Counted from the first letter of the stretch, positions 13,582-36,148 are shown. The stretch: DNA of 64,000 nt from an uncultured Pelagibacteraceae bacterium (GCA_902595115.1 CACJOS010000002.1:34378-98377), one strand, 5' to 3'. Notes: generated by a model from the letters alone, not told the origin. Translations and numbers: made by a program.

Positions 13582-13838
13582 TGATGTTTTATCACGTATA
13601 TTTAATCATTTGTAAAAACAAAAATAAGACAATTTCTTATGTAGGATATACAAATAACATTAATAATAGAATCAAATTACATAATAATGGAAAGGGAGCC
13701 AAATTCACCAAAGGTAGAAAATGGAAGTTAATTTATTCTAAAAAGTTTTTATCAAAAAAGATAGCAATGAGAGAAGAATATAAGCTTAAAAAAAATTATA
13801 AACTTAGGAAAGAAATTAAATCTAATGCTAAAGTTTAA
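13581..13838 (+). CDS. GIY-YIG nuclease family protein (UPF0213-like); start may be 13584
   Basis: HVYL...YVGYTNN...RIKLHNNGKGAKFTKGR...AMREEY. Confidence 0.88.
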   Translation: MMFYHVYLIICKNKNKTISYVGYTNNINNRIKLHNNGKGAKFTKGRKWKLIYSKKFLSKKIAMREEYKLKKNYKLRKEIKSNAKV

Positions 13839-14412
13839 AAAAATAAAAGGTAATTTAATCCATCCAACTGCTGTAATTAATTGGAAATCTTTAATCATTG
13901 GTACAGGTAATACTATAGGACCATATGTGGTAATTGGTAATCAAGCACAATGGAAAAATAAAAAAAATAGTGGAAAAATAGTAATTGGTAATGGTAATGT
14001 TTTTAATGAATATACAAATATACACTTACCTACATCTATTAAAAAAAAAACCCATATAGGAAATAACAATTATATAATGAACTCAACAACAATCGATCAT
14101 GATTGCTTTTTAGAGGATGATGTTATTTTAAGTAGCAATGTTATTCTTGGTGGTAACATCCATATAATGAAAAATGCTAATCTAGGCATAAAGACGATTG
14201 TACATCAAAATCAAGTTATAGGATCATTTTCAATGATAGGAATGGGATCAATAATAACAAAAAATAAAAGAATTTTACCAGGTTATATGTATTATGGCAA
14301 ACCTGTAAAAAAAATTAGAAAAAATATTTTAAGTTTAAAAAAGAATAAAATTAATGATAAAAATTTAAAAAGTGAACATGTAAGATTTAAAAAAATTTTA
14401 AAAAATATATGA
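13825..14412 (+). CDS. LpxA-like left-handed beta-helix acyl/acetyltransferase
   Basis: IHPTAVI, hexapeptide repeats, DHDC, VHQ. Confidence 0.8.
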   Translation: MLKFKKIKGNLIHPTAVINWKSLIIGTGNTIGPYVVIGNQAQWKNKKNSGKIVIGNGNVFNEYTNIHLPTSIKKKTHIGNNNYIMNSTTIDHDCFLEDDVILSSNVILGGNIHIMKNANLGIKTIVHQNQVIGSFSMIGMGSIITKNKRILPGYMYYGKPVKKIRKNILSLKKNKINDKNLKSEHVRFKKILKNI

Positions 14413-16487
14413 AAGATATTGCAATATTATTACCATATAAGGAAAACTTTACAGAAAAAAGTGCTGGGGCCGCATCAATTTGGGTAAAAGATTATTTAAA
14501 TAAAAGTCAATTAAAAAAAAGATCATTAGTTTTTGGTAATCTTGAAGATAATTCCAAACCATTATTAAAAAACTTTAAAAATCTGAAAATTGGAAATTCT
14601 TTCGTTAAAAAAAATATATCTTATACAAATAAATTATATAAAGAATATCTTAAATATAATTTTAAAATTATTGAAATTCATAATAGACCTGAATCGTTAC
14701 TTTATTTAATTAAAAAAAAAGTAAAAGCTAAACTTATTTTTGTTTTTCATAATAACCCCCAAGATTTAAGAGCATCATCATCAATTAAAGAAAGAATATT
14801 TATTGCTGAAAATACAGATCAAATTTATTTTGTTAGTAAATGGGTAAAAAATAAATTTTTTGAAGATTTACCATATGATCACCGAAACAATACAGACATT
14901 CTTTACCCTGCTATTAATCCAATTAAAATTTTTCCCCCCAAAAAAAAATTGATAATTTTCACTGGAAAACTTAATTCATCAAAAGGCTTTGATATTTATT
15001 GTAAAGCTGTAATTAAAATATTAGATAAATTTAAAGATTGGAGAGCTTTAGCTATAGGTAATGAGCCTAGAGAAAAATTTAATTTTAAACATGATCGTTT
15101 TAAAGTTTTAGATTGGGTTACTCATGATAAGATATTAAATTATTATAAAAAGTCATCTATTTCTGTCGTTCCGTCTAGATGGCAAGAACCATTCGGTAGA
15201 ACCGCAATGGAATCTGCTGCTTATGGTTGTGCAACGATTACTTCTTTAAAAGGTGGTTTGCCTGAAACATTTGAAAATTCCTTATTTATTAAAAAAATAA
15301 ATGAACAAGAACTGTATAAAATAATTCAAAAACTTATTAAAAATAATAATTATAGAAAATATATTCAAAATCTTAATTTTAAAAATGTTAAACACAAGCT
15401 TGATGATCATGTTGATAAAATTGATAGTGTAAAAAATTTTTTTTTAAATTCTAATTTTAATTTTAATAAAGGTTCGAAGCTTAAAATATTACACATATCT
15501 ACATTTGATGAAAGAAGTGATCATCGTTTATTTAATATATCTATTGCAAATAAACTTTCAAAAGGTTTTATTAGAAATGAACATGATGTAATAAATTTTA
15601 GTTATAGAAATTACTTATCCAAAAATTTAGTAACGAAAAATAATTCACATATTAATGAAAAAATTATAAATATAGCAGATAATTATCGACCAAATTTAAT
15701 TATTTTAGGCCACAATAACATATTAGAGTATGAAACAATATACGAAATTAAATCCAAGTATAATTCAAAAATAATTTTATGGTATGAAGACGCTTTAGGA
15801 TTTAGAGGGGAGGGCCCTAACTGGAAAAATAATCTAAATTTAATTGAAAATAATAATGAATTGATAGATCAATATTATTTGACTACGCATCCTGACGAAA
15901 TAGATACTAAAATAAATAAAAAAAAACTTAATTATTTACCAATTCCTGTAGACCCAAATATAGAAAATTTGAAGATTTATGAATATAAAAATAGGTATAA
16001 AGATTTATTCTTTGCGCTAAGCCATGGGGTAAATTTTGGAAAACTCAAGAAAGGTAAAAGTGATGAACGTGAAATATTTATTAATCAACTAATGAAAATA
16101 TTTCCTAATGTTAAATATAATATCTTGGGTGTATCAAATGAACCACCTAAATGGAATTACAATTTTTATAAAGAATTAATTAAATGTAAAATGTCATTAA
16201 ATTTAAGTAGGGGTAAACCTTTAAAATTTACATCGAGTAACAGAATCGCTGCCCTAATTGGGAATGGAATTTTTACTTTTATAGATGAAAAGACAAAATT
16301 TAAGCATTTTTTTAATGAAAATGAAGTTGGATTTTATAAAAATTTAAATGATTTAGGACATAAGATTGAATACATGTTAAGTAATCCTAAAAAAATAAAT
16401 GAGTATGGTAAAAACGGTAAGTCAAAATATTTCAAACTATTCAACAACAAAATAATTACGAAAAATATTATTGAAAATACATTTTAA
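14409..16487 (+). CDS. Two-module glycosyltransferase (GT4 plus GT-B/CgeB-like)
   Basis: EIHNRP, PSRWQEPFGRTAMES (GT4); second module with LNLSRG, SSNRI. Confidence 0.85.
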   Translation: MKDIAILLPYKENFTEKSAGAASIWVKDYLNKSQLKKRSLVFGNLEDNSKPLLKNFKNLKIGNSFVKKNISYTNKLYKEYLKYNFKIIEIHNRPESLLYLIKKKVKAKLIFVFHNNPQDLRASSSIKERIFIAENTDQIYFVSKWVKNKFFEDLPYDHRNNTDILYPAINPIKIFPPKKKLIIFTGKLNSSKGFDIYCKAVIKILDKFKDWRALAIGNEPREKFNFKHDRFKVLDWVTHDKILNYYKKSSISVVPSRWQEPFGRTAMESAAYGCATITSLKGGLPETFENSLFIKKINEQELYKIIQKLIKNNNYRKYIQNLNFKNVKHKLDDHVDKIDSVKNFFLNSNFNFNKGSKLKILHISTFDERSDHRLFNISIANKLSKGFIRNEHDVINFSYRNYLSKNLVTKNNSHINEKIINIADNYRPNLIILGHNNILEYETIYEIKSKYNSKIILWYEDALGFRGEGPNWKNNLNLIENNNELIDQYYLTTHPDEIDTKINKKKLNYLPIPVDPNIENLKIYEYKNRYKDLFFALSHGVNFGKLKKGKSDEREIFINQLMKIFPNVKYNILGVSNEPPKWNYNFYKELIKCKMSLNLSRGKPLKFTSSNRIAALIGNGIFTFIDEKTKFKHFFNENEVGFYKNLNDLGHKIEYMLSNPKKINEYGKNGKSKYFKLFNNKIITKNIIENTF

Positions 16488-17470
16488 TAAAGTTTATCTA
16501 AAATTTTTAAAATTTTTCTAGCAAAGTCAATATTTGTGAATGGTTTTTTATTATTTTTAATACATCTAAAAAAATATTTTAACTCATCTAAAAGAGGATT
16601 ATTAGATTTTACTTTTGGCGAATAGTTTTTGCCAAAATATATTTTTGCTTTTTGTCTAAAAAACTTATCATTAAATTCCGAGATTTTTGGATACTCTGCG
16701 TATTTATTATATATCACAATTTTATTATCTTTTTTCATTTCATCGAACAACAACATTTTTTTTTTAGTTACAACTGTTATACGTCGAACTTTATCAGGGT
16801 TTAGCCAGCTATTGTGTATGTCTATATATATATTTTTAAACTTAGCACTAAGATTAGATATATCGGGAAGCTTTTTTTTTAAAATAGGATAACTATTTTC
16901 ACAAAGTTTTTTTGGCAAATCTCCGAGAAAATAATATAATATACTTAAATCATGAGAAGATAAATCATAAGATACACTTACATCATTTCTAATAGGTCCT
17001 AAATTTTGTCTTTGGAACTTTAAATATAATATTCTCCCATTTTTTTTATCAGTAACAAATTTTTTTACAAAATTTATATAGTTATTGAACATATAAATAT
17101 AGCCAAACATAAGAATTTTATTATTTTTTAATTTTTTAAAATAATCAATCTCTTTTAAATTTTTAAGGCCAGGTTTTTCAATAAATATATTTTTTTTATT
17201 TTTTATAAATATTTTTAGCAATTTATAGTTTTTACTTGGAGGGGTGGCTAAAATTATATTTTTAATTTTTTTGTTAACAAGAATGTTTGATAGATTTTTT
17301 TCAATATTTATTAAATTTGGAAATCTTTTTTTTAAAATTTTGCAATTATCTTGATTCTCATCAAAAACATAAATAGACTTTTTAATTGCAATTAGTGATT
17401 TTGCTATATTAGTACCCCAATAACCACAACCAATTAAAGCTGTATCGATTTTTTTAGTATTTTTAGACAT
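16484..17470 (-). CDS. Gfo/Idh/MocA oxidoreductase (WlbA/WbpB-like nucleotide-sugar dehydrogenase)
   Basis: IGCGYWGTN, EKP, DLSSHD, SWLNPDKVR. Confidence 0.85.
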   Translation of the reverse strand: MSKNTKKIDTALIGCGYWGTNIAKSLIAIKKSIYVFDENQDNCKILKKRFPNLINIEKNLSNILVNKKIKNIILATPPSKNYKLLKIFIKNKKNIFIEKPGLKNLKEIDYFKKLKNNKILMFGYIYMFNNYINFVKKFVTDKKNGRILYLKFQRQNLGPIRNDVSVSYDLSSHDLSILYYFLGDLPKKLCENSYPILKKKLPDISNLSAKFKNIYIDIHNSWLNPDKVRRITVVTKKKMLLFDEMKKDNKIVIYNKYAEYPKISEFNDKFFRQKAKIYFGKNYSPKVKSNNPLLDELKYFFRCIKNNKKPFTNIDFARKILKILDKLY

Positions 17471-17505
17471 AAAATTGTAATATTTATTGTATTAAGATTG
17501 TTTTC

Positions 17506-18372
17506 ATGGAATTTTCAATCATTATACCAAGCCATAATAATTACAAATACTGCAAATTAACTATAGATTCTATCAAAAAAAATTCATCATTTAATCATGA
17601 AATAATTGTTCATATAAACGGTGAGGATAATGAAACAGAAAATTATCTCAAAAATGAAAGTATTCTTTATTCTAAATCACATGACAATATTGGTCTATGT
17701 AGTGGTGTTAACAGAGCTTACAAATTAAGCTCTAAAAGTTACATTTTATACTCGCACGATGATATGTACTTTTTACCAAATTGGGACAATGCCTTAATTA
17801 AAGAGATGAAAAATATTAATGATAATAATTTTTATCTTTCTATGACCCAAATATCGCCTACTGGTCCAGTTAAAGGTAGTCTTCAGCACATACAATTTAA
17901 TTGTGGTGAAAATATTGATGTTTTTGATGAAGAAAAACTCTTACAAAATTATATGAGTTTTAAATTTAATGATTTACAGGGAAGTCATTGGGCGCCACAT
18001 CTGATACCAAGAGATTTATGGAAAAGAGTAGGGGGATTTAGCGAAGAATATAATCCAGGCTTTGCCTCTGATCCTGATCTTAATATGAAACTGTGGATAG
18101 AGGGTAATAGAATTTTTAAAAGTGTTTCTAACTCAAGAATTTATCATTTTGGGTCAGTTACCACAAGAAAAAATAAGAATATTATAAGAAATAAAGGGAA
18201 AAAAACATTTTTATTAAAGTGGAAGTTTACAGTTGAATTTTTTACGAAACATTATTTGAGACGAGGTAAAATATTTGATGGACCTTTAGAGAAACCAAAA
18301 ATAAATCTAACTTATCTTATTGATTATATAATCAGTAAAATTAAATATATTACTTATAAATTTTTTAAATGA
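17506..18372 (+). CDS. Glycosyltransferase family 2
   Basis: FSIIIPS, HDD, GGFSE, SDPD, YHFGS. Confidence 0.85.
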   Translation: MEFSIIIPSHNNYKYCKLTIDSIKKNSSFNHEIIVHINGEDNETENYLKNESILYSKSHDNIGLCSGVNRAYKLSSKSYILYSHDDMYFLPNWDNALIKEMKNINDNNFYLSMTQISPTGPVKGSLQHIQFNCGENIDVFDEEKLLQNYMSFKFNDLQGSHWAPHLIPRDLWKRVGGFSEEYNPGFASDPDLNMKLWIEGNRIFKSVSNSRIYHFGSVTTRKNKNIIRNKGKKTFLLKWKFTVEFFTKHYLRRGKIFDGPLEKPKINLTYLIDYIISKIKYITYKFFK

Positions 18373-19298
18373 AAAAAAAACTAACCGTTGAAATAGCTGA
18401 AGGTCTTGGAAATCAAATTTTTATGTATGCTTTTGCTTTTTCAATATCCAAAAAGTATAATTATGACCTCTTTATTGATAACCGTAGTGGGTATTCAAGA
18501 AAAAAGAATTTATTAAGACCTCATCAAATATACATGCTTGATAATTTTAATATTGTTCAAAATATTGCAGATAATCAAATGATTTTTGACACACCTTTTA
18601 AAAGACTTAAAAAAAAAATTCAAATATTTTTAGATAATTTTTCCTACAAAAAAAAATTCTTAATTGAAAAAAAAATTGTTGCAGGTAATAAAAAAAATAT
18701 CGAAAAGATAATTAATGTAGATTCAGATAGAATATCTGATAATCTTTATATTCAAGGAAATTTTGAAAATTCTATCTATTTTAGCAATTTTAAATCTGAG
18801 TTAAGTAAAATTTTAACGCCAAAAAAAAAATTGATTGATATAGATAATCCTTTAATTAACAAAATCAAAAATTCAAACTCTATTTCTTTACATATAAGAA
18901 AAAATAGATTTTCAGATCAAATTGATCTTAAAAGTAGTAAAAATATTCACAAGTCAAATTTTTTTACAGAAAACATTATTAATTATACAAATAAATCAAT
19001 TGATTATATTAATTCAAAAGTTTCAAATCCTGAGTATTTTATTTGGTCAAATGATCATAATAATATTAATGATTATTTAAGTAAAATAAAAATTAAAAAT
19101 TATACTTTAGTGAATAATAATGTAATTAATGATTTTAATTTATTTAGTTATTGTAAACACTTTATTGTTGGACCTTCGTCATTCCATTGGTGGGGCGCAT
19201 GGTTAAATCCAAACCCTAATAAAATTTGTATTAGACCTAAAAATATCAATCCTTCAAATAATAAAAATTTTTGGCCTGAAAATTGGATATCAATTTAA
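18369..19298 (+). CDS. Alpha-1,2-fucosyltransferase-like (GT11)
   Basis: GLGNQIF, LHIR, SSFHWWGAWL, WPENW. Confidence 0.85.
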   Translation: MKKKLTVEIAEGLGNQIFMYAFAFSISKKYNYDLFIDNRSGYSRKKNLLRPHQIYMLDNFNIVQNIADNQMIFDTPFKRLKKKIQIFLDNFSYKKKFLIEKKIVAGNKKNIEKIINVDSDRISDNLYIQGNFENSIYFSNFKSELSKILTPKKKLIDIDNPLINKIKNSNSISLHIRKNRFSDQIDLKSSKNIHKSNFFTENIINYTNKSIDYINSKVSNPEYFIWSNDHNNINDYLSKIKIKNYTLVNNNVINDFNLFSYCKHFIVGPSSFHWWGAWLNPNPNKICIRPKNINPSNNKNFWPENWISI

Positions 19299-20248
19299 AT
19301 TTTCACTTTATTTAATGCATTATTTTTAAATATATTCGCTTCTCTAATGTATCTTCTTACCATCTGAGTTGTTTTATGGCCAGTCATTGCCATAATACTA
19401 CGTTCATCTGCTCCAGCCTCAGCAGCAACCGTTGCAAAACCTGATCTTAAGCTATGTCCTGCAAAGTTTTTATTTTCAATTCCTGCTAAATTTAAATACT
19501 CTTTCATTAATAAAACTACTGATTGGTCGGTTAATCTTTTTTCTGTTAGAGCTAAGCCTTTGGAAAATCTTCTAAATATAGGTCCAGACTTAATTTTAGA
19601 AATTTCTAACCATTTTTTAAGATTCACTACAGGGCAATAAGCTTGATTGGAAAAATAGGGTAGTCCTTTGACCATTCCTTCACCGAATTGATCAGTTTTT
19701 GATCTTCTAATAGTGATTTTAAGACCCTCAGGTACAAATTCTAAATCTTCATGATCAATTGAAATAAGCTCTGTTCGTCTAAAGCCACCTCCAAAGCCTA
19801 CTAGGATAATTGACTTGTCTCTAAATTTCTTTAGATTTTGGATTTTTTGCTCATCTATTACATTAATTATTGATTTTAAATGATTGATTAATATAGGTTT
19901 TTTTCCTTTTTGAATGCTTCCTTTTACCCTTTTTATTCCCATTAAATTTTCAACAATAATTGGATGTTTTGTATCTAAATAATGTCCTTTGAGCTTATGC
20001 ACCATGCTAATCGACACTAATCTTCTTCTTATAGTGCTGATTTTTGAATTTTTTGAAAGATGGGTTAAGTATAAAGAAACAATTTTTGGCTCAGATGGCA
20101 ATGAATTCAAACCATGTTTTACACAAAAAGATCCAAAGTCTTTAAAGTCTGATTTATATGCTCTTAAAGTGTTATTTGCTCTAGAGCTTTTAAGGTTATT
20201 TAAAGTTGCCTCATGAAGCAATTTTAGGTCTGTTGTTAGTTCATTCAT
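19295..20248 (-). CDS. Cre-like tyrosine site-specific recombinase
   Basis: Intact catalytic set: R (FRRTEL), K (SKTDQ), HxxR (HSLR), H (TGH), Y (VRRY). N-terminal NTLRAY core-binding domain; no arm-binding domain. Confidence 0.93.
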   Translation of the reverse strand: MNELTTDLKLLHEATLNNLKSSRANNTLRAYKSDFKDFGSFCVKHGLNSLPSEPKIVSLYLTHLSKNSKISTIRRRLVSISMVHKLKGHYLDTKHPIIVENLMGIKRVKGSIQKGKKPILINHLKSIINVIDEQKIQNLKKFRDKSIILVGFGGGFRRTELISIDHEDLEFVPEGLKITIRRSKTDQFGEGMVKGLPYFSNQAYCPVVNLKKWLEISKIKSGPIFRRFSKGLALTEKRLTDQSVVLLMKEYLNLAGIENKNFAGHSLRSGFATVAAEAGADERSIMAMTGHKTTQMVRRYIREANIFKNNALNKVKI

Positions 20249-20251
20249 ATA

Positions 20252-20286
20252 ATTACTATTGATAACAATTAATTATCATTAGTAAT
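20252..20286. other. lox/dif-like recombination site candidate: 14-bp inverted arms with 7-bp asymmetric spacer
   Basis: ATTACTATTGATAA-CAATTAA-TTATCATTAGTAAT; arms match 13/14; 3 bp upstream of the recombinase ATG. Confidence 0.75.
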
Positions 20287-20310
20287 ATTATAACTCATTT
20301 AACAAGTCAA
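20282..20310 (-). promoter_or_regulatory. Putative sigma70 promoter of the recombinase, overlapping the outer arm of the site
   Basis: Minus strand TTGACT-N17-TATTAC. Confidence 0.35.
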
Positions 20311-20505: not shown

Positions 20506-20979
20506 TTGATCGATATTTTTATTATAATTATAGCTGGTATTTTTTCATGCATAATTTTGGATATTTTGGGGTTTTTAATGAAGTTTTTTGGAATTCCCGA
20601 ACCTTCATGGGCTATCGTTGGTCGATGGACCTATTATATGCTAAAAAAAGCCAAATTTTATAACCCTAATATTGCAGAAATGGCTTCATTTAAATATGAG
20701 GTTATTCTAGGTTGGGTTTTTCACTATTACTTATCAATTTGTTGGGCTGTTATATATTACATTTGTTTTATATTTATTGGTCTTAAAATGTCCTATTTTT
20801 CGGGATTCATATTTGGAGCTCTAACTACTTTAGCTCCATTATTGATATTCCTGCCATTTACTGGACAAGGTATATTTGCTATGAATACCAATATACCTGT
20901 AAAAACCTCATTAATTTTTTTGATTAGACATTCAATTTATGGAATTGCTATGTATGAGGGTTTTAGATGGTTCAATTAA
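20506..20979 (+). CDS. DUF2938-like membrane protein
   Basis: WAIVGRW, GWVFHY, LPFTGQGIFA, HSIYG pattern; TTG start. Confidence 0.7.
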   Translation: MIDIFIIIIAGIFSCIILDILGFLMKFFGIPEPSWAIVGRWTYYMLKKAKFYNPNIAEMASFKYEVILGWVFHYYLSICWAVIYYICFIFIGLKMSYFSGFIFGALTTLAPLLIFLPFTGQGIFAMNTNIPVKTSLIFLIRHSIYGIAMYEGFRWFN

Positions 20980-21539: not shown

Positions 21540-22003
21540 AACAATTTTCGAGTATTTTTCAGCCAAAAAGGTAATAAAATCAACATTTTTTAAACATTTG
21601 TAATCAAAACTACTTCGATAGAGAAATTCCCCCTTTAGTTGTACCAAAAACAATGATTTGTTAAAAATAGACCCTTCCCTGCTCGTTTAAATGGCATATT
21701 CTAATTATGCATTGCTCACAAAATTACCCTTCAAAGTCTTTAAAAGATCTTAATTTGCAGTTCCTTTAATGGATATTTGTGTTTAAAAAATCATGTATTA
21801 ATGCGATATATTTTATATCAGTCATTTTTTAGGATAAAAATTCATAAATATTTAATTTTTTCATTTATAATTTTATAATTTACTCGATAATTATACAATA
21901 TTTTTGTCATTATTATAATATTTAAAATAATCAATAATTACAGTAATATACAATTGTATATTAAAGTAACACATTAATATATAGTAAATAATTTTGTACT
22001 TTA

Positions 22004-22855
22004 TTAAATATTATTTTTATTAAAGCTGCCCCTTCTAAAAATATAAATACCTGCCGATACAATGATAAATAGACCGAGAAAAGTCCAATTATCAGGAAAA
22101 TCACCAAAGAAATAGTACCCAATTATTATATTAGTAATTATTTCAAAGTAACTAAAAGGAGCTAGTTTAGAAGCATCAGCGTATTTAAGAGATAAAATTA
22201 AAAAGAAATGTCCTATGCAAGCAAATATTCCAACAGCAGCCATTAATGACCATTGGGTTAATGATGGTTGCACCCAAACAATTGGAATGATTAAAGAAAT
22301 AATTATAGCCCCTACTACACCGGTTAATAATAAAGTTAATAGTGGATTATCAGATGAACTTAATTTTCGTGTTATAATTAAATAAAATCCATACAAAATT
22401 CCTGTTATTAATGCTGCTATACTCGCTAAGTTTATATCTACAAATCCTGGTCTAATTACCACCAAAGTACCAACAAAACCTATTATTACAGCTAACCACC
22501 TTCTATAACCAACTTTTTCACCTAAAAAAAAAGGTGAAAATGCTGTGACTATTAGTGGAGCTATAAATGCTAAGGTTAAAGCTTTAGCAAGAGATATTAT
22601 TGATATTGAATAAAAAAAACAAATATTAGCAAGCAAAAGTATCAATCCTCTTAAGAATTGTAATTTAGGATTTGTAGTCCAAACAAGGTATTTTTTAAAT
22701 AAGAAAAACATTATCGGTAAAGTAAAAAAAACTGTAAAAAAATATCTCGCCCACGTAATTTGCAAAACAGGAAGATCAGAACTTAAATATTTCGCAATAC
22801 CATCCATTATTGGGAGCATTACCCAAGCTAGTAAATTAAATGTTACAGCTTTCAT
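22004..22855 (-). CDS. DMT/EamA family transporter
   Basis: About 10 TM; LGEKVG, IRPG, ASKLAPFSY. Confidence 0.88.
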   Translation of the reverse strand: MKAVTFNLLAWVMLPIMDGIAKYLSSDLPVLQITWARYFFTVFFTLPIMFFLFKKYLVWTTNPKLQFLRGLILLLANICFFYSISIISLAKALTLAFIAPLIVTAFSPFFLGEKVGYRRWLAVIIGFVGTLVVIRPGFVDINLASIAALITGILYGFYLIITRKLSSSDNPLLTLLLTGVVGAIIISLIIPIVWVQPSLTQWSLMAAVGIFACIGHFFLILSLKYADASKLAPFSYFEIITNIIIGYYFFGDFPDNWTFLGLFIIVSAGIYIFRRGSFNKNNI

Positions 22856-27324: not shown

Positions 27325-28653
27325 ATGTCAAAACAAACAAAAAATCCGGAAACTATTGCATTACATGGTGGTGATTACAGAAGTGATCCAGCTACTACTG
27401 CGGTAGCTGTTCCAATTTATAGAACAACGTCATATCAATTTAACAATACAGGGCATGCTGCAAATTTATTTGCATTAAAAGAATTTGGAAATATTTACAC
27501 AAGAATTATGAATCCAACAAATGATGTACTTGAAAAAAGAGTTGCGGCACTAGAAAATGGTTTAGCCTGTGTAACAGTTGGCTCTGGCCAAGCTGCATCA
27601 ACATTTGCAATAGTTAATGTATGTCAAGCTGGAGATAATTTTGTTAGCTCAACCGATCTTTACGGTGGTACTGTTAACTTATTTACTCATACATTAAAAA
27701 AATTAGGAATAGAGGTAAGATATGCTGATCCATCTGATCCTAAAAATTTTGAAAAAGCTATTGATGAAAAAACTAGATGTTTTTATGCAGAGACTTTACC
27801 AAATCCAGCTCTTCGTGTTTTTCCTATCAAGGAGGTTTCAGATATAGGAAGAAAACATAATATACCGTTGATAATGGATAATACTGCTGCACCAATTATA
27901 TGCAAACCACTTGATCATGGTGCTGCTGTAGTAGTTCATTCATTAACTAAATTTATTGGTGGTCATGGCACTGTAATTGGTGGGTGCTTAGTTGATGGTG
28001 GTAATTTTGATTGGACAGCAGATCCTAAAAGACAACCATTGTTTAATGAACCTGATATGAGTTATGGTGGAGCAAAATGGGGTGAAGTAGTTCCTCAATT
28101 AACTGGTGCAAATGTTTCATTTGCTGTTAGAGCAAGAGTATGTCTACTTAGAGACTTAGGTGCACCGTTAGCACCTGATAATGCATGGGGAATTATTCAA
28201 GGTCTTGAAACAGCTCCTTTAAGAATGCAACAACATTGCTCTAATGCAACAAAAGTTGTCGACTTTCTACAAAAACATAAAAATGTAGAGCGTGTTATAT
28301 ACCCTACCCTTCATAAAGGTGCGATCGGTGATAGGACTAAAAAATACTTTTCTGGAGGTAATGGAGCATTAGTCGGTATTGAAGTTAAGGGCGGTGTAGA
28401 AGCTGGTAAAAAGTTTATAGAAGCTTTAAAAATGTTTTATCATGTTGCAAATATTGGTGATGCAAGAAGCTTAGCAATACACCCGGCAACAACAACACAC
28501 AGCCAATTGACTCCTGAGGAGCTTTTAGCTGCTGGTGTAACGCCTGGTTATGTTAGACTTTCAATTGGTATAGAACATCCAGATGATATTATAGCTGATT
28601 TAAAACAAGCATTGGATGCTTCAGGAAAACCAAGTCTAAAGGCTGTTAGTTAG
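27325..28653 (+). CDS. metY: O-acetylhomoserine aminocarboxypropyltransferase (sulfhydrylase)
   Basis: GNIYTRIMNPT, HSLTKFIGGHG (PLP Lys), ANIGDARSL; strong RBS GGGAGG. Confidence 0.93.
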   Translation: MSKQTKNPETIALHGGDYRSDPATTAVAVPIYRTTSYQFNNTGHAANLFALKEFGNIYTRIMNPTNDVLEKRVAALENGLACVTVGSGQAASTFAIVNVCQAGDNFVSSTDLYGGTVNLFTHTLKKLGIEVRYADPSDPKNFEKAIDEKTRCFYAETLPNPALRVFPIKEVSDIGRKHNIPLIMDNTAAPIICKPLDHGAAVVVHSLTKFIGGHGTVIGGCLVDGGNFDWTADPKRQPLFNEPDMSYGGAKWGEVVPQLTGANVSFAVRARVCLLRDLGAPLAPDNAWGIIQGLETAPLRMQQHCSNATKVVDFLQKHKNVERVIYPTLHKGAIGDRTKKYFSGGNGALVGIEVKGGVEAGKKFIEALKMFYHVANIGDARSLAIHPATTTHSQLTPEELLAAGVTPGYVRLSIGIEHPDDIIADLKQALDASGKPSLKAVS

Positions 28654-33000: not shown

Positions 33001-35106
33001 TTATCCAGCTATAACTGCTAATAAAAGTAAGGCTACAATGTTTGTTATCTTAATCATTGGATTAACAGCTGGGCCTGCTGTATCTTTATAAGGATCACCA
33101 ACCGTATCACCTGTAACTGCAGCTTTATGAGCCTCAGAACCTTTGCCTCCAAAGTTTCCATCTTCAATATATTTTTTTGCATTGTCCCAAGCTCCACCAC
33201 CAGCGGTCATAGAAATAGCTACAAATAATCCTGTAATTATTACTCCTAACAACATTGCACCAACTGAAGATAATGCAGCAACTTGTCCACCTATTGGTAA
33301 AATTATTAAATATAGAACTATTGGTGATAATACCGGCAACAATGATGGGACAATCATCTCTTTAATTGCAGCTTTAGTTAATAAATCAACTAATTTACCA
33401 TAATCAGGTTTTGCTTTTCTTTTCATTATACCTGGAATTTTTTTGAATTGTCTTCTTACCTCGACTACAACAGCACCACCCGCTCTACCAACTGCCTGCA
33501 TACCCATAGAGCCAAACAAATAAGGCAACATTCCACCAACTAATAATCCAACTACCACAAATGGATTTGATAAATCAAAAGTTACGACTATACCCTCTAA
33601 TTGAGATCCAGCTACTTTTGAAAAATGTTTTATATCCTCTGTATAAGCTGCAAATAAAACTAAGGCACCTAAACCGGCTGAACCAATTGCATAACCTTTT
33701 GTAACTGCTTTAGTAGTGTTACCTACTGCATCTAATGCATCTGTGGTTTTTCTTACATTTTTTGGTAGATTAGACATTTCAGCAATACCACCTGCATTAT
33801 CAGTAACAGGGCCATAAGCATCTAATGCTACAACCATACCAGCTAATGCAAGCATGGTAGTAACGGCTATTGCAATACCAAAAAGACCAGCAATATAGTT
33901 TGTTAATAATATCCCGCTTACAATAATTAAAGCTGGAACTGCCGTAGCTTCCATAGATACTGCCAATCCTTGGATTACGTTTGTACCATGACCAGTTGTA
34001 GACGAAGACGCAACACTTTTTACAGGTCTATAATTTGTGCCTGTATAATATTCTGTAACCCATATAATCAAACCAGTAATAGCAAGACCAATTATACCGC
34101 AAATGTATAAACTCATACCAGTGAATGATTTGTCAGATATATTATATGAGTTTTCTAAACCTAAAACATAGTCTGTTATTGGATACAATATAGCAACTGA
34201 AGTTACCGCAGTAACTATAAATCCTTTATATAAAGCTGCCATTATATTCTTTGAGTTTCCTAGTTTAACAAAAAAAGTTCCAATAATTGATGTGATTATA
34301 CAAGCTCCACCAATAGATAATGGATAAACCATCATATTTAAATCACCTTGAAAAAATATTGATGATAAAACCATTGTAGCTACAATAGTAACCGCATAAG
34401 TTTCAAATAAATCAGCAGCCATACCAGCGCAGTCACCTACATTATCTCCAACATTGTCCGCAATTACTGCCGGATTTCTTGGATCGTCTTCTGGAATACC
34501 AGCTTCTACTTTTCCTACTAAATCAGCACCTACGTCCGCACCTTTTGTAAAAATTCCGCCACCAAGTCTTGCAAAAATTGAAATTAAAGATGCACCAAAT
34601 CCCAGTGCGACAAGAGCATTTACTATTTCTCTTTCATCAACACCAAAAGATAACAATAAATAATAATAAACAGCGATAGATAAAAGGGCTAAACCAGCAA
34701 CTAACATTCCAGTAACAGCACCAGATTTAAATGCAATTGAGAGTCCTTGGGGTAAACCTTTCCTTGATGCTTCTGCGGTTCGTACGTTTGCTTGTACAGA
34801 TACAAGCATACCAACATAACCTGCCAAACCAGATAAAGCAGCTCCAATTAGATATCCCAAACCAACTAAAATGCTAAAAGCATAACTTATAATAACTAAA
34901 ACTACTACTCCTACAATCGCTATAGTCTTATACTGTCTATTTAGATATGCTCTCGCTCCAACTTGAATAGCTGATGCAATCTCTTGCATTTTTTGATTTC
35001 CAGAACTCGAATTTAATATATTTTTTCCTGTAAAAAAGCCGTAAACAATTGATAGTAAACCCGATAAAATGATCAATTGGAGTATATTTAGTGCTGAGTC
35101 TTCCAT
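33001..35106 (-). CDS. hppA: Membrane-bound pyrophosphatase, K+-independent H+-pumping type
   Basis: [26 protein letters not shown] (Lys at the K+-dependence site), [10 protein letters not shown]. Confidence 0.95.
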
Positions 35107-35188
35107 AAATTCCTTTAATTATAGTTATTTAGTAATGTTAAAAACCCGGACATTACAAAAATAAATACAAAAGGCAATATTTAACTTT

Positions 35189-36148
35189 CTAAAACTTATG
35201 CAAATATCCTTTGTATTTGCTTAATTTTAATGACTTATTATTCAACAAAAGCGTATTTTTTTTATAATTATTATTTATCTCCCCAATAATCGTAACCTTT
35301 TGACTCATTTTATTAGCAATTGATTTAATTAGCTTGCGGTTTTTTTTTGAAGATGTGAATAATATTTGGTAATCATCACCATAAAATACAAATTTTTCCT
35401 TCATTAAATTATTTTTGTTTAAATAACTTTTTAAATTTGAAGAGATAGGAATATTGTTAACATTAAGCTCAAAAGATAGTCTTTGATTGTTAATTAATCT
35501 CTCCATGTCAGAAATTAAACCATCTGATACATCAATGGATGTATTTGCAAATATAGGTAATTTTTTAGAAAAATTATAAGGAATATCTGGACAGTAATAT
35601 TTATTAATAAAATATTTTTCTAATTTTTTCGAAAAAGATTTTTGTTTTTTAATAAATTTTAACCCTAAATAACTATCACCAATATTACCAGTTACATAAA
35701 TATCATCACTCAATTTTGCAGAATTTCTCTCAACAATTTTTTTTGAAAAACCAATTACAGTAACTGAGAAGGACGGAATTTTTGAGTAAACTGTATCACC
35801 ACCACCAATAACAATTGAATATTTTTTTTGTTCATCCTTTAAAGATTTTGAAATTAAAGAAAGATTTTTTTTTGTAAAAATTTTTTTATTACCACCACCT
35901 GATAAAAAGTAGTATTTTGGAACAACTCCTTTGCAAATTAGATCTGATAGTGACGACCTAATAATTTTTTTGATAATATAGTGAGGGTGATCAAAACTTT
36001 TAAAGTGAATATCTGAGTTATAAGTGTCAACAGATACTACTAGCCCGGTATTCTTGTCATGAAAAACATCATCGTTCAGATTTTTTGCAGCTGGGTTGTT
36101 TTTTGATAATACCTTAAAATAATCATTTATTATTTTAAACTCATTCAT
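35189..36148 (-). CDS. thiL: Thiamine-monophosphate kinase
   Basis: MNEFKII, DD, GGDT, DVSDGL, GDDYQIL; ATG at 36148. Confidence 0.92.
   Translation of the reverse strand: MNEFKIINDYFKVLSKNNPAAKNLNDDVFHDKNTGLVVSVDTYNSDIHFKSFDHPHYIIKKIIRSSLSDLICKGVVPKYYFLSGGGNKKIFTKKNLSLISKSLKDEQKKYSIVIGGGDTVYSKIPSFSVTVIGFSKKIVERNSAKLSDDIYVTGNIGDSYLGLKFIKKQKSFSKKLEKYFINKYYCPDIPYNFSKKLPIFANTSIDVSDGLISDMERLINNQRLSFELNVNNIPISSNLKSYLNKNNLMKEKFVFYGDDYQILFTSSKKNRKLIKSIANKMSQKVTIIGEINNNYKKNTLLLNNKSLKLSKYKGYLHKF

Follow-up and report, generated by a model that had tools for sequence, protein, structure and literature searches.

Dimer resolution by a single enzyme is already known. According to the available texts on them, XerS/difSL, XerH/difH and XerL/dif each consist of one recombinase and one palindromic terminus site in genomes without XerCD, as at the locus presented here, and for streptococcal and lactococcal XerS and XerH of Helicobacter and Campylobacter the site adjoins the gene, as it also does here. 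XerS/difSL was described as a single-enzyme terminus system that resolves dimers (PMC1914069, accessible part), and XerL was reported to resolve dimers and to be restricted to Legionellales (10.1101/2021.09.12.459815, accessible part). The available sections of PMC2680272 indicate that Cre/loxP can replace XerCD/dif in E. coli, in which case it depends on FtsK guided by KOPS (consensus GGGNAGGG), and that at the engineered dif::loxP site FtsK was needed for simple synapses and not for enzyme activation. Carnoy and Roten (2009, PMC2731167), in the text available, listed Pelagibacter ubique among species without a dif/Xer system, asked what replaces it in such species, and regarded natural Cre/lox-like substitutes as being without evidence.

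In Pelagibacteraceae, a tyrosine recombinase and the palindrome adjoining its gene very probably constitute the chromosome dimer resolution system, in place of XerCD/dif. The sequence-only reading had proposed that a plasmid-type module serves as chromosomal dimer resolvase in this lineage, and this was supported by the lack of XerC/XerD, by single-copy conservation, by the skew flip and by KOPS. The observations comprise sequence, conservation, copy number, position, exclusivity towards XerC/XerD and the covariation of protein and site. A literature search, with supplements excluded and subscription journals largely outside its reach, retrieved no published description of this SAR11 module, and Pelagibacter is unmentioned in the main text of Kono et al. 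(2011).

The recombinase, its plasmid relatives and the adjoining palindrome

The window analysed is a stretch of 64,000 nucleotides from an uncultured Pelagibacteraceae bacterium, belonging to a 919,619-bp assembly that is 72% complete; its nearest relatives are Pelagibacteraceae records with 89-97% protein identity. The features at the locus are the following:

19295..20248, minus strand: gene for a 317-aa tyrosine recombinase that has a core-binding and a catalytic domain, with R157, K184, H265, R268, H291 and Y300, and with Q242
20252..20286, no strand: palindromic site, predicted recombination site, 35 bp, class 1 arms (arms 20252-20265 and 20273-20286, spacer 20266-20272)
20266..20272, minus strand: 7-bp spacer, TTAATTG on the gene's strand
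20282..20287, minus strand: putative -10 hexamer, placed from the sequence and a 17-nt spacing; the distal arm's outer 5 bases fall within it
20305..20310, minus strand: predicted -35 hexamer of the recombinase promoter

The gene had been described beforehand as encoding an intact tyrosine recombinase devoid of an arm-binding domain, and this was borne out by the open reading frame, by the catalytic residues and by a Pfam match to Phage_integrase (E 2e-18) accompanied by a SAM-like N-terminal domain, no arm-binding domain being matched in the Pfam domain search of the 317-aa protein. The six catalytic residues listed above were unchanged in 70/70 orthologues, and the protein was the sole PF00589 match in the assembly. 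The label 'Cre-like' held for the fold, since a Foldseek search with the structure predicted for the protein (mean pLDDT 69) matched Cre best (E 7e-13, TM about 0.69), but it was only weakly appropriate to the sequence (22% identity, E 2e-9). As in Cre/loxP of P1, symmetric arms lie close to the gene, and the protein falls in the 300-400 aa class with a palindrome less than 1 kb away; unlike Cre, it has His (H291) for Trp315 and a 7-bp instead of an 8-bp spacer (Cre criteria from PMC10250229). Relatives of the gene were covered by metatranscriptome contigs, which by themselves cannot show transcription.

The resemblance to XerCD/dif lies in the terminus position, the convergence of KOPS and an FtsK with a gamma domain. 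The difference lies in the use of one enzyme, which scored 68 (XerD) and 57 (XerC) bits against cut-offs of about 330, and in symmetric arms around a 7-bp centre, where dif is a 28-bp site with a 6-bp centre. Against the XerS model, whose cut-off is 267, the recombinase reached 43 bits, XerH came after Cre in the fold search, at rank 33, and no XerH sequence match was obtained in the PDB search; the inner arm is GATAA here and GAAAA in the difH table as printed in the available text.

In its sequence, the recombinase resembles plasmid resolvases of the IntA/TnpS type more closely than it resembles Cre, and its full-length homology to IntA-type plasmid recombinases was closer than that to Cre or Xer. 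Unnamed plasmid proteins were 35-45% identical to it, several of them with a TCCGATAA-type site nearby. A protein of pWW0, named TnpS-like from its divergent partner gene and from the layout in PMC7157771, showed 28% identity over 311 residues (E 2e-38), and the region upstream of its gene yielded no more than a weak ATAA-N7-TTAT core. An integrase of p42a showed 25% identity (E 9e-23) and adjoins a 23-mer one base off the printed attA, for which reason it is presumably IntA. The link to rhizobial IntA made in the sequence-only reading was corroborated, the 23-bp attA of Rhizobium etli p42a as printed in the accessible part of PMC4928290 having the core of the class 2 arms defined below, with a 7-bp centre. 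This core is shared by IntA/attA, by the plasmid resolvases with TCCGATAA arms and by the 34/180 family genomes that carry a class 2 site. However, the plasmid systems are mobile, patchy and concerned with plasmid cointegration and resolution, whereas the SAR11 pair belongs to the chromosome, occurs almost throughout the family, keeps its place at the terminus and in most cases has apparently derived class 1 arms; the class 1 site of the window shares just GATAA-N7-TTATC with the plasmid-type site TCCGATAA-N7-TTATCGGA. Close relatives outside the family were indeed patchy, being found in 18/297 other genomes of the class, and plasmid-borne. TnpS of Tn4651 (pWW0) works with a divergent helper, TnpT (PMC7157771), in contrast to the present locus, where the upstream neighbours are a DUF2938 gene and an ogt-like gene without tnpT or the context of a Tn3-family transposon. 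In a quick tree the deep branches were long and the long Xer outgroup branch was misplaced, so the deep placement was not used.

The palindrome was found exactly as first described, 3 bp upstream of the recombinase ATG, with 14-bp arms that differ by one mismatch and a 7-bp spacer (14-7-14). Its presence as a single copy was confirmed by a search of the whole 919,619-bp assembly, in which the next best arm-pair match had 6 mismatches, and a 27-base degenerate site pattern matched once in the window against 0.02 expected. Comparably good palindromes are common, with 100 overlapping 13-bp-arm matches genome-wide, many of them terminator-like, and the case for the site is therefore based on conservation and comparison and not on palindrome quality. 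A weak arm look-alike at G000:C10:19007-19041, with 7 mismatches over the arms and without the full core, is probably a chance occurrence.

It had also been suggested that a promoter overlaps the arm. A conserved TTGAC, which would act as the -35 element, was located 33 nt ahead of the site core in 79/80 close loci, and a 17-nt spacer would put the -10 box within the distal arm, in which case binding of the enzyme would lead to autorepression. The generic promoter scan, which performed at chance level, missed this predicted recombinase promoter altogether. Since the spacer also lies within the predicted mRNA leader, its conservation has a second possible cause.

Conservation, arm classes and distribution against XerC/XerD

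The core GATAA-N7-TTATC was present ahead of the gene in 106/106 orthologue loci (107 minus one whose contig begins inside the gene, the locus of the window being counted), and the spacer measured 7 bp in all 106 host loci examined. Across the 80 close loci, core columns were 97-100% conserved and most arm columns 96-100%, two degenerate positions both fell in the distal arm, and the flanks were variable. The spacer itself was identical in 88/104 loci, and 11 more carried a one-base variant. Two classes of arms were recognised, class 1, to which the window belongs, and class 2, TCCGATAA-N7-TTATCGGA; they differ on both arms in a compensatory manner that preserves the palindrome, and at some class 2 loci the outer arm extends as far as the start codon. 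In tallies that include the unpublished genome G076, which entered no other result, the exact class 1 pattern was found in 122/180 and the class 2 pattern in 34/180 family genomes (156/180 together), leaving 24/180 that match neither. Over 200 genomes of the order, the exact patterns always occurred as one copy per genome and never as both classes; they were absent from 20/20 sister-family genomes, and reversed-pattern controls gave 0. Both sets of results, the core in every locus and one site copy per genome, agree with the expectation that gene and palindrome are conserved as a single-copy unit.

The two classes of sites are accompanied by differences in the protein. Residue 242, aligned with Cre R259, which the accessible parts of PMC4957104 and PMC7438526 describe as a specificity residue in helix J, was Q in 39/39 class 1 proteins and K in 31/31 class 2 proteins, and a 12-residue hairpin was missing from class 2 proteins. 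Outside relatives with class 2 arms had mostly K or R at this position, and E in two. The arm-class label changes just twice on the gene tree and related genomes are not independent, so this covariation is suggestive and is no statistical proof; it suggests that the recombinase reads the adjoining site. Both arm classes occurred within each of three genera, and the gene tree rejected the monophyly of two genera (AU p 3e-6 and 2e-4, in tests on 45 of 70 rows with a quick tree, a simple model and groups picked after the tree was seen). This rejection, which comes from the recombinase gene tree and not from a host marker tree, points to exchange of a gene-plus-site cassette between lineages.

A PF00589 match was obtained in 169/180 family genomes, mostly one per genome, and the 11/180 without a match were all fragmented assemblies, one of them 99% complete. 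The orthologue was present in 25/29 genomes of other genera and absent from 20/20 sister-family genomes, where the matches were just 24-30% identical. Among 45 single-contig genomes, the gene was frameshifted in two, G065 (L539) and G095 (L540), through either assembly error or true loss. The absence of xerC/xerD, which the proposal of a replacement implied, was seen in these 45 single-contig family genomes and the assembly of the window, where the search yielded no protein of XerC/XerD grade (82 bits at best on TIGR02225), against two Xer-like genes in each of 4 sister-family genomes, with 314-322 and 244-254 bits, scores that sit just below the cut-off of the curated XerD model. This exclusive distribution indicates that the two families hold alternative systems, the recombinase module in one and an XerC/XerD-like pair in the other. 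In a 2026 preprint (10.64898/2026.10.07.757358), 'XerC and XerD' are attributed to 15 Arctic Pelagibacterales genomes; as far as its available text goes, these names read as automatic annotation labels.

Scans for a canonical dif were less informative: the 16-base core gave matches at chance level in both families, and a longer pattern, whose sensitivity was poor, matched in 3/180 family genomes and in just 2/20 sister-family genomes. A dif-like 28-mer in G069, located at 884.8 kb and far from the terminus, was discarded for its overlap with a start codon. Two canonical-looking dif sites were noticed at the local GC-skew flip in the sister family, L527 (G006:C2:75855-75882) and L528 (G008:C21, near 78290); this is the family with XerC/XerD-like genes.

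Position at the terminus and gene neighbourhood

It had been asked whether the module maps to the GC-skew terminus. Within the window, cumulative GC skew peaks at 20-22 kb, and in G069, the one genome for which a global curve was drawn, the cumulative maximum (427,063) lies 0.9 kb from the site (426,162-180), with the minimum about half a genome away. In 13/13 genomes local skew was positive to the left and negative to the right of the site (20 kb on each side), and the peak fell between -2.8 and +2.4 kb from it. The answer was thus favourable, with a flip within 3 kb in each of the 13 genomes and converging KOPS, although corrected T-A in G069 dissents. In that genome the raw skew follows the orientation of the genes; after correction for orientation, G-C at fourfold sites gave no clear signal, and T-A turned along a broad plateau (~460-540 kb, extreme at 529 kb), 30-110 kb off the site.

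The KOPS-type octamers of the window are all directed at the site (3/3):

15807..15814, plus strand: KOPS-type octamer facing the site from 4.4 kb on its left
21672..21679, minus strand: KOPS-type octamer facing the site from 1.4 kb on its right
28302..28309, minus strand: KOPS-type octamer facing the site from 8 kb on its right

Over 20 of the 45 single-contig genomes, with the origin assumed to lie opposite the site and most genome sizes rounded, 256 KOPS pointed toward the site and 44 away; within 15 kb of the site the counts were 23 and 0, and the nearest KOPS was at most 5 kb away in 11/20 genomes, against 2.2 expected. Around 105 orthologue loci 47 pointed toward the site and 1 away, but a shuffled control octamer was also inward (8 vs 0), so KOPS polarity alone partly reflects skew. 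Enrichment was the more specific measure: among 90 G-rich octamers of like composition, KOPS ranked first for enrichment toward the site, and 11 were seen within 6 kb against 1.7 expected, in 13 genomes of which 12 overlap with the 20-genome set. The gamma domain of FtsK was retained in 5/5 genomes. Many site-proximal KOPS occur in one recurring coding context, 3-4 kb off (L039 at +3.9 kb, L045 at -3.4 kb and similar loci), which is probably a homoserine dehydrogenase gene and uses GGG glycine codons, unusual at 30% GC.

As to the neighbourhood, the three tRNAs of the window are all at least 5.7 kb from the site. An ogt-like gene stood upstream of the site almost invariably in the 80 loci, and no conserved helper gene flanked the site in this set. 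A DUF2938 gene (window 20506-20979), inserted between the site and the ogt-like gene, was found in just 10 compared loci. The region 3' of the recombinase holds surface-polysaccharide genes whose content varied widely across the 80 loci, and at some loci no island genes adjoin the recombinase. In the window, positions 13825-19298, between tRNA-Glu/GIY-YIG and the recombinase, contain acetyltransferase-like, GT1, oxidoreductase-like, GT2 and GT11 genes, and because island content differs so widely among the 80 relatives, this region would be a replacement-type surface-polysaccharide island at the terminus. Relative to the window, the outer gene blocks were swapped about the module in L033, L039, L041, L046, L086, L093 and L097, the module staying put, an arrangement consistent with inversions centred near the terminus.

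Phage copies of the arms, rival readings and proposed function

Complete class 1 arms around a spacer of 7 bp were carried by 33 viral contigs, which had no recombinase match in the fetched flanks. A terminase gene, resembling those of cultured pelagiphages, starts 0.2-1.2 kb from the site in 30/33 class 1 and 40/45 low-GC class 2 viral loci, and a second arm pair, usually class 2-like, lay within 160 bp in 14/33 class 1 loci. Degenerate copies occupy the same place in three cultured phages:

Greip 22465-22499: phage look-alike site
HTVC024P 35155-35218: phage look-alike site
HTVC100P 34317-34393: phage look-alike site

The exact core was absent from the first 50 kb of HTVC023P and HTVC027P. 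The look-alike sites (L142-L174, L331-L410, L558-L581) lie in a non-coding stretch upstream of the terminase, often near G/C runs. Phage spacers measured 6, 7 and 8 bp in 12, 33 and 12 loci and were mostly unlike the host spacer, whose commonest form was exact in 4/45 low-GC class 2 and 3 class 1 viral loci; among the class 1 loci from the arm scan, a common host spacer was present in 0/33. KOPS was not enriched near the phage copies (0 toward and 2 away for 33 loci; 2 and 0 for 45 loci), and no host-phage junction or hybrid was seen among 114 metagenome loci. The idea that HTVC010P-type phages had been reported to integrate at dif was dropped, since Du et al. (2021), in the text available, report integration at tRNA genes only and do not mention 'Xer'.

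A P1-style circularisation of phage DNA, with the host enzyme as its agent, was weighed and given less credence in view of the 6- and 8-bp phage spacers. Spacers free to vary from 6 to 8 bp favour decoys or operators, and binding without recombination would fit the phage copies best; self-recombination of phage DNA and occasional integration would be less probable.

Three other readings of the host locus were weighed against dimer resolution. The palindrome might be just an autorepression operator or an att site, the enzyme serving the glycosyltransferase island or being the fixed relic of a mobile element. The site does overlap a predicted promoter, the genes 3' of the recombinase do vary widely in the 80 loci, and the relatives are plasmid-borne and patchy (18/297); even so, the island has no second bounding site and each genome a single copy, the recombinase has no neighbouring island genes at some loci, and the catalytic residues are invariant in 70/70 proteins. 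As this reading also leaves the skew flip, the convergence of KOPS and the XerC/XerD exclusivity unexplained, it was considered very improbable. Position, KOPS and FtsK would be predicted just as well by a pair that mainly decatenates sisters or anchors the terminus, dimer resolution being minor, and decatenation by FtsK-XerCD has been described (PMC2680272, available sections). However, the characterised single-enzyme terminus systems XerS and XerL resolve dimers, according to the accessible parts of their descriptions, and no datum here is specific to decatenation, so that this function received even less credence as the main one.

The phage contigs bring in a further possibility, that the site is mainly a landing pad for integrase-less phages, like the IMEX elements at dif. 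The phage arms unaccompanied by a recombinase match speak for it, as do the few exact host spacers (4/45 class 2 and 3 class 1 viral loci); but none of the 33 class 1 arm-scan loci had a common host spacer, spacer length varies from 6 to 8 bp, hybrids numbered 0/114 in metagenome loci, two site copies were never seen in 200 genomes, and the tRNA genes are the sole integration targets in what is available of Du et al. (2021). It was held to be the least credible of the three, and chromosome dimer resolution is the reading retained.

For dimer resolution by this module, binding, catalysis, the role of FtsK, autorepression and origin are what we infer. Two recombinase monomers would occupy the two arms of each sister copy of the site, and FtsK guided by KOPS would gather the two sites of a dimer at the septum, where a homotetramer would cut and rejoin DNA across the 7-bp spacer via Y300. 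As with loxP/Cre engineered into the dif position of E. coli, the role of FtsK is probably to align the sites and not to switch the enzyme on. The enzyme, once bound, would mask its own -10 box and thereby keep its level in check. Capture from the widespread family of plasmid resolvases with TCCGATAA (class 2) arms is the probable origin of the module, class 1 representing a derived specificity.

Compared with single-enzyme dimer resolution as already known, the new elements here are the probable origin from a plasmid resolvase, the existence of two specificity classes and the arrays in phages. The module offers a concrete, testable answer to the question of Carnoy and Roten, for a dominant marine lineage, and, if true, it would add another independent way of arriving at dimer resolution with one enzyme, through the capture of a plasmid resolvase. 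A broader synthesis is put forward tentatively and appears doubtful as a whole: the main SAR11 family would have swapped XerCD for a plasmid-derived, factor-independent resolvase with two DNA-specificity classes, exchanged as a cassette at the terminus, and unrelated pelagiphage groups would carry tandem arms of both classes by the terminase to bind, titrate or borrow the enzyme, in an arms race over chromosome segregation. The phage copies do point to an undescribed phage-host interaction. In practical terms, the site provides a precise terminus marker for SAR11 genomes, and recombinase engineering could draw on the natural Q/K pair at the position of Cre R259, with its matched arms, as a ready-made specificity series. 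A further set of plasmid, viral and chromosomal recombinases (L197, L198, L199, L337, L386, L519, L522 and L523) is accompanied by clean TCCGA(T/C)AA palindromes with spacers of 6, 7 or 8 bp, forming a pool of candidate recombinase-site pairs.
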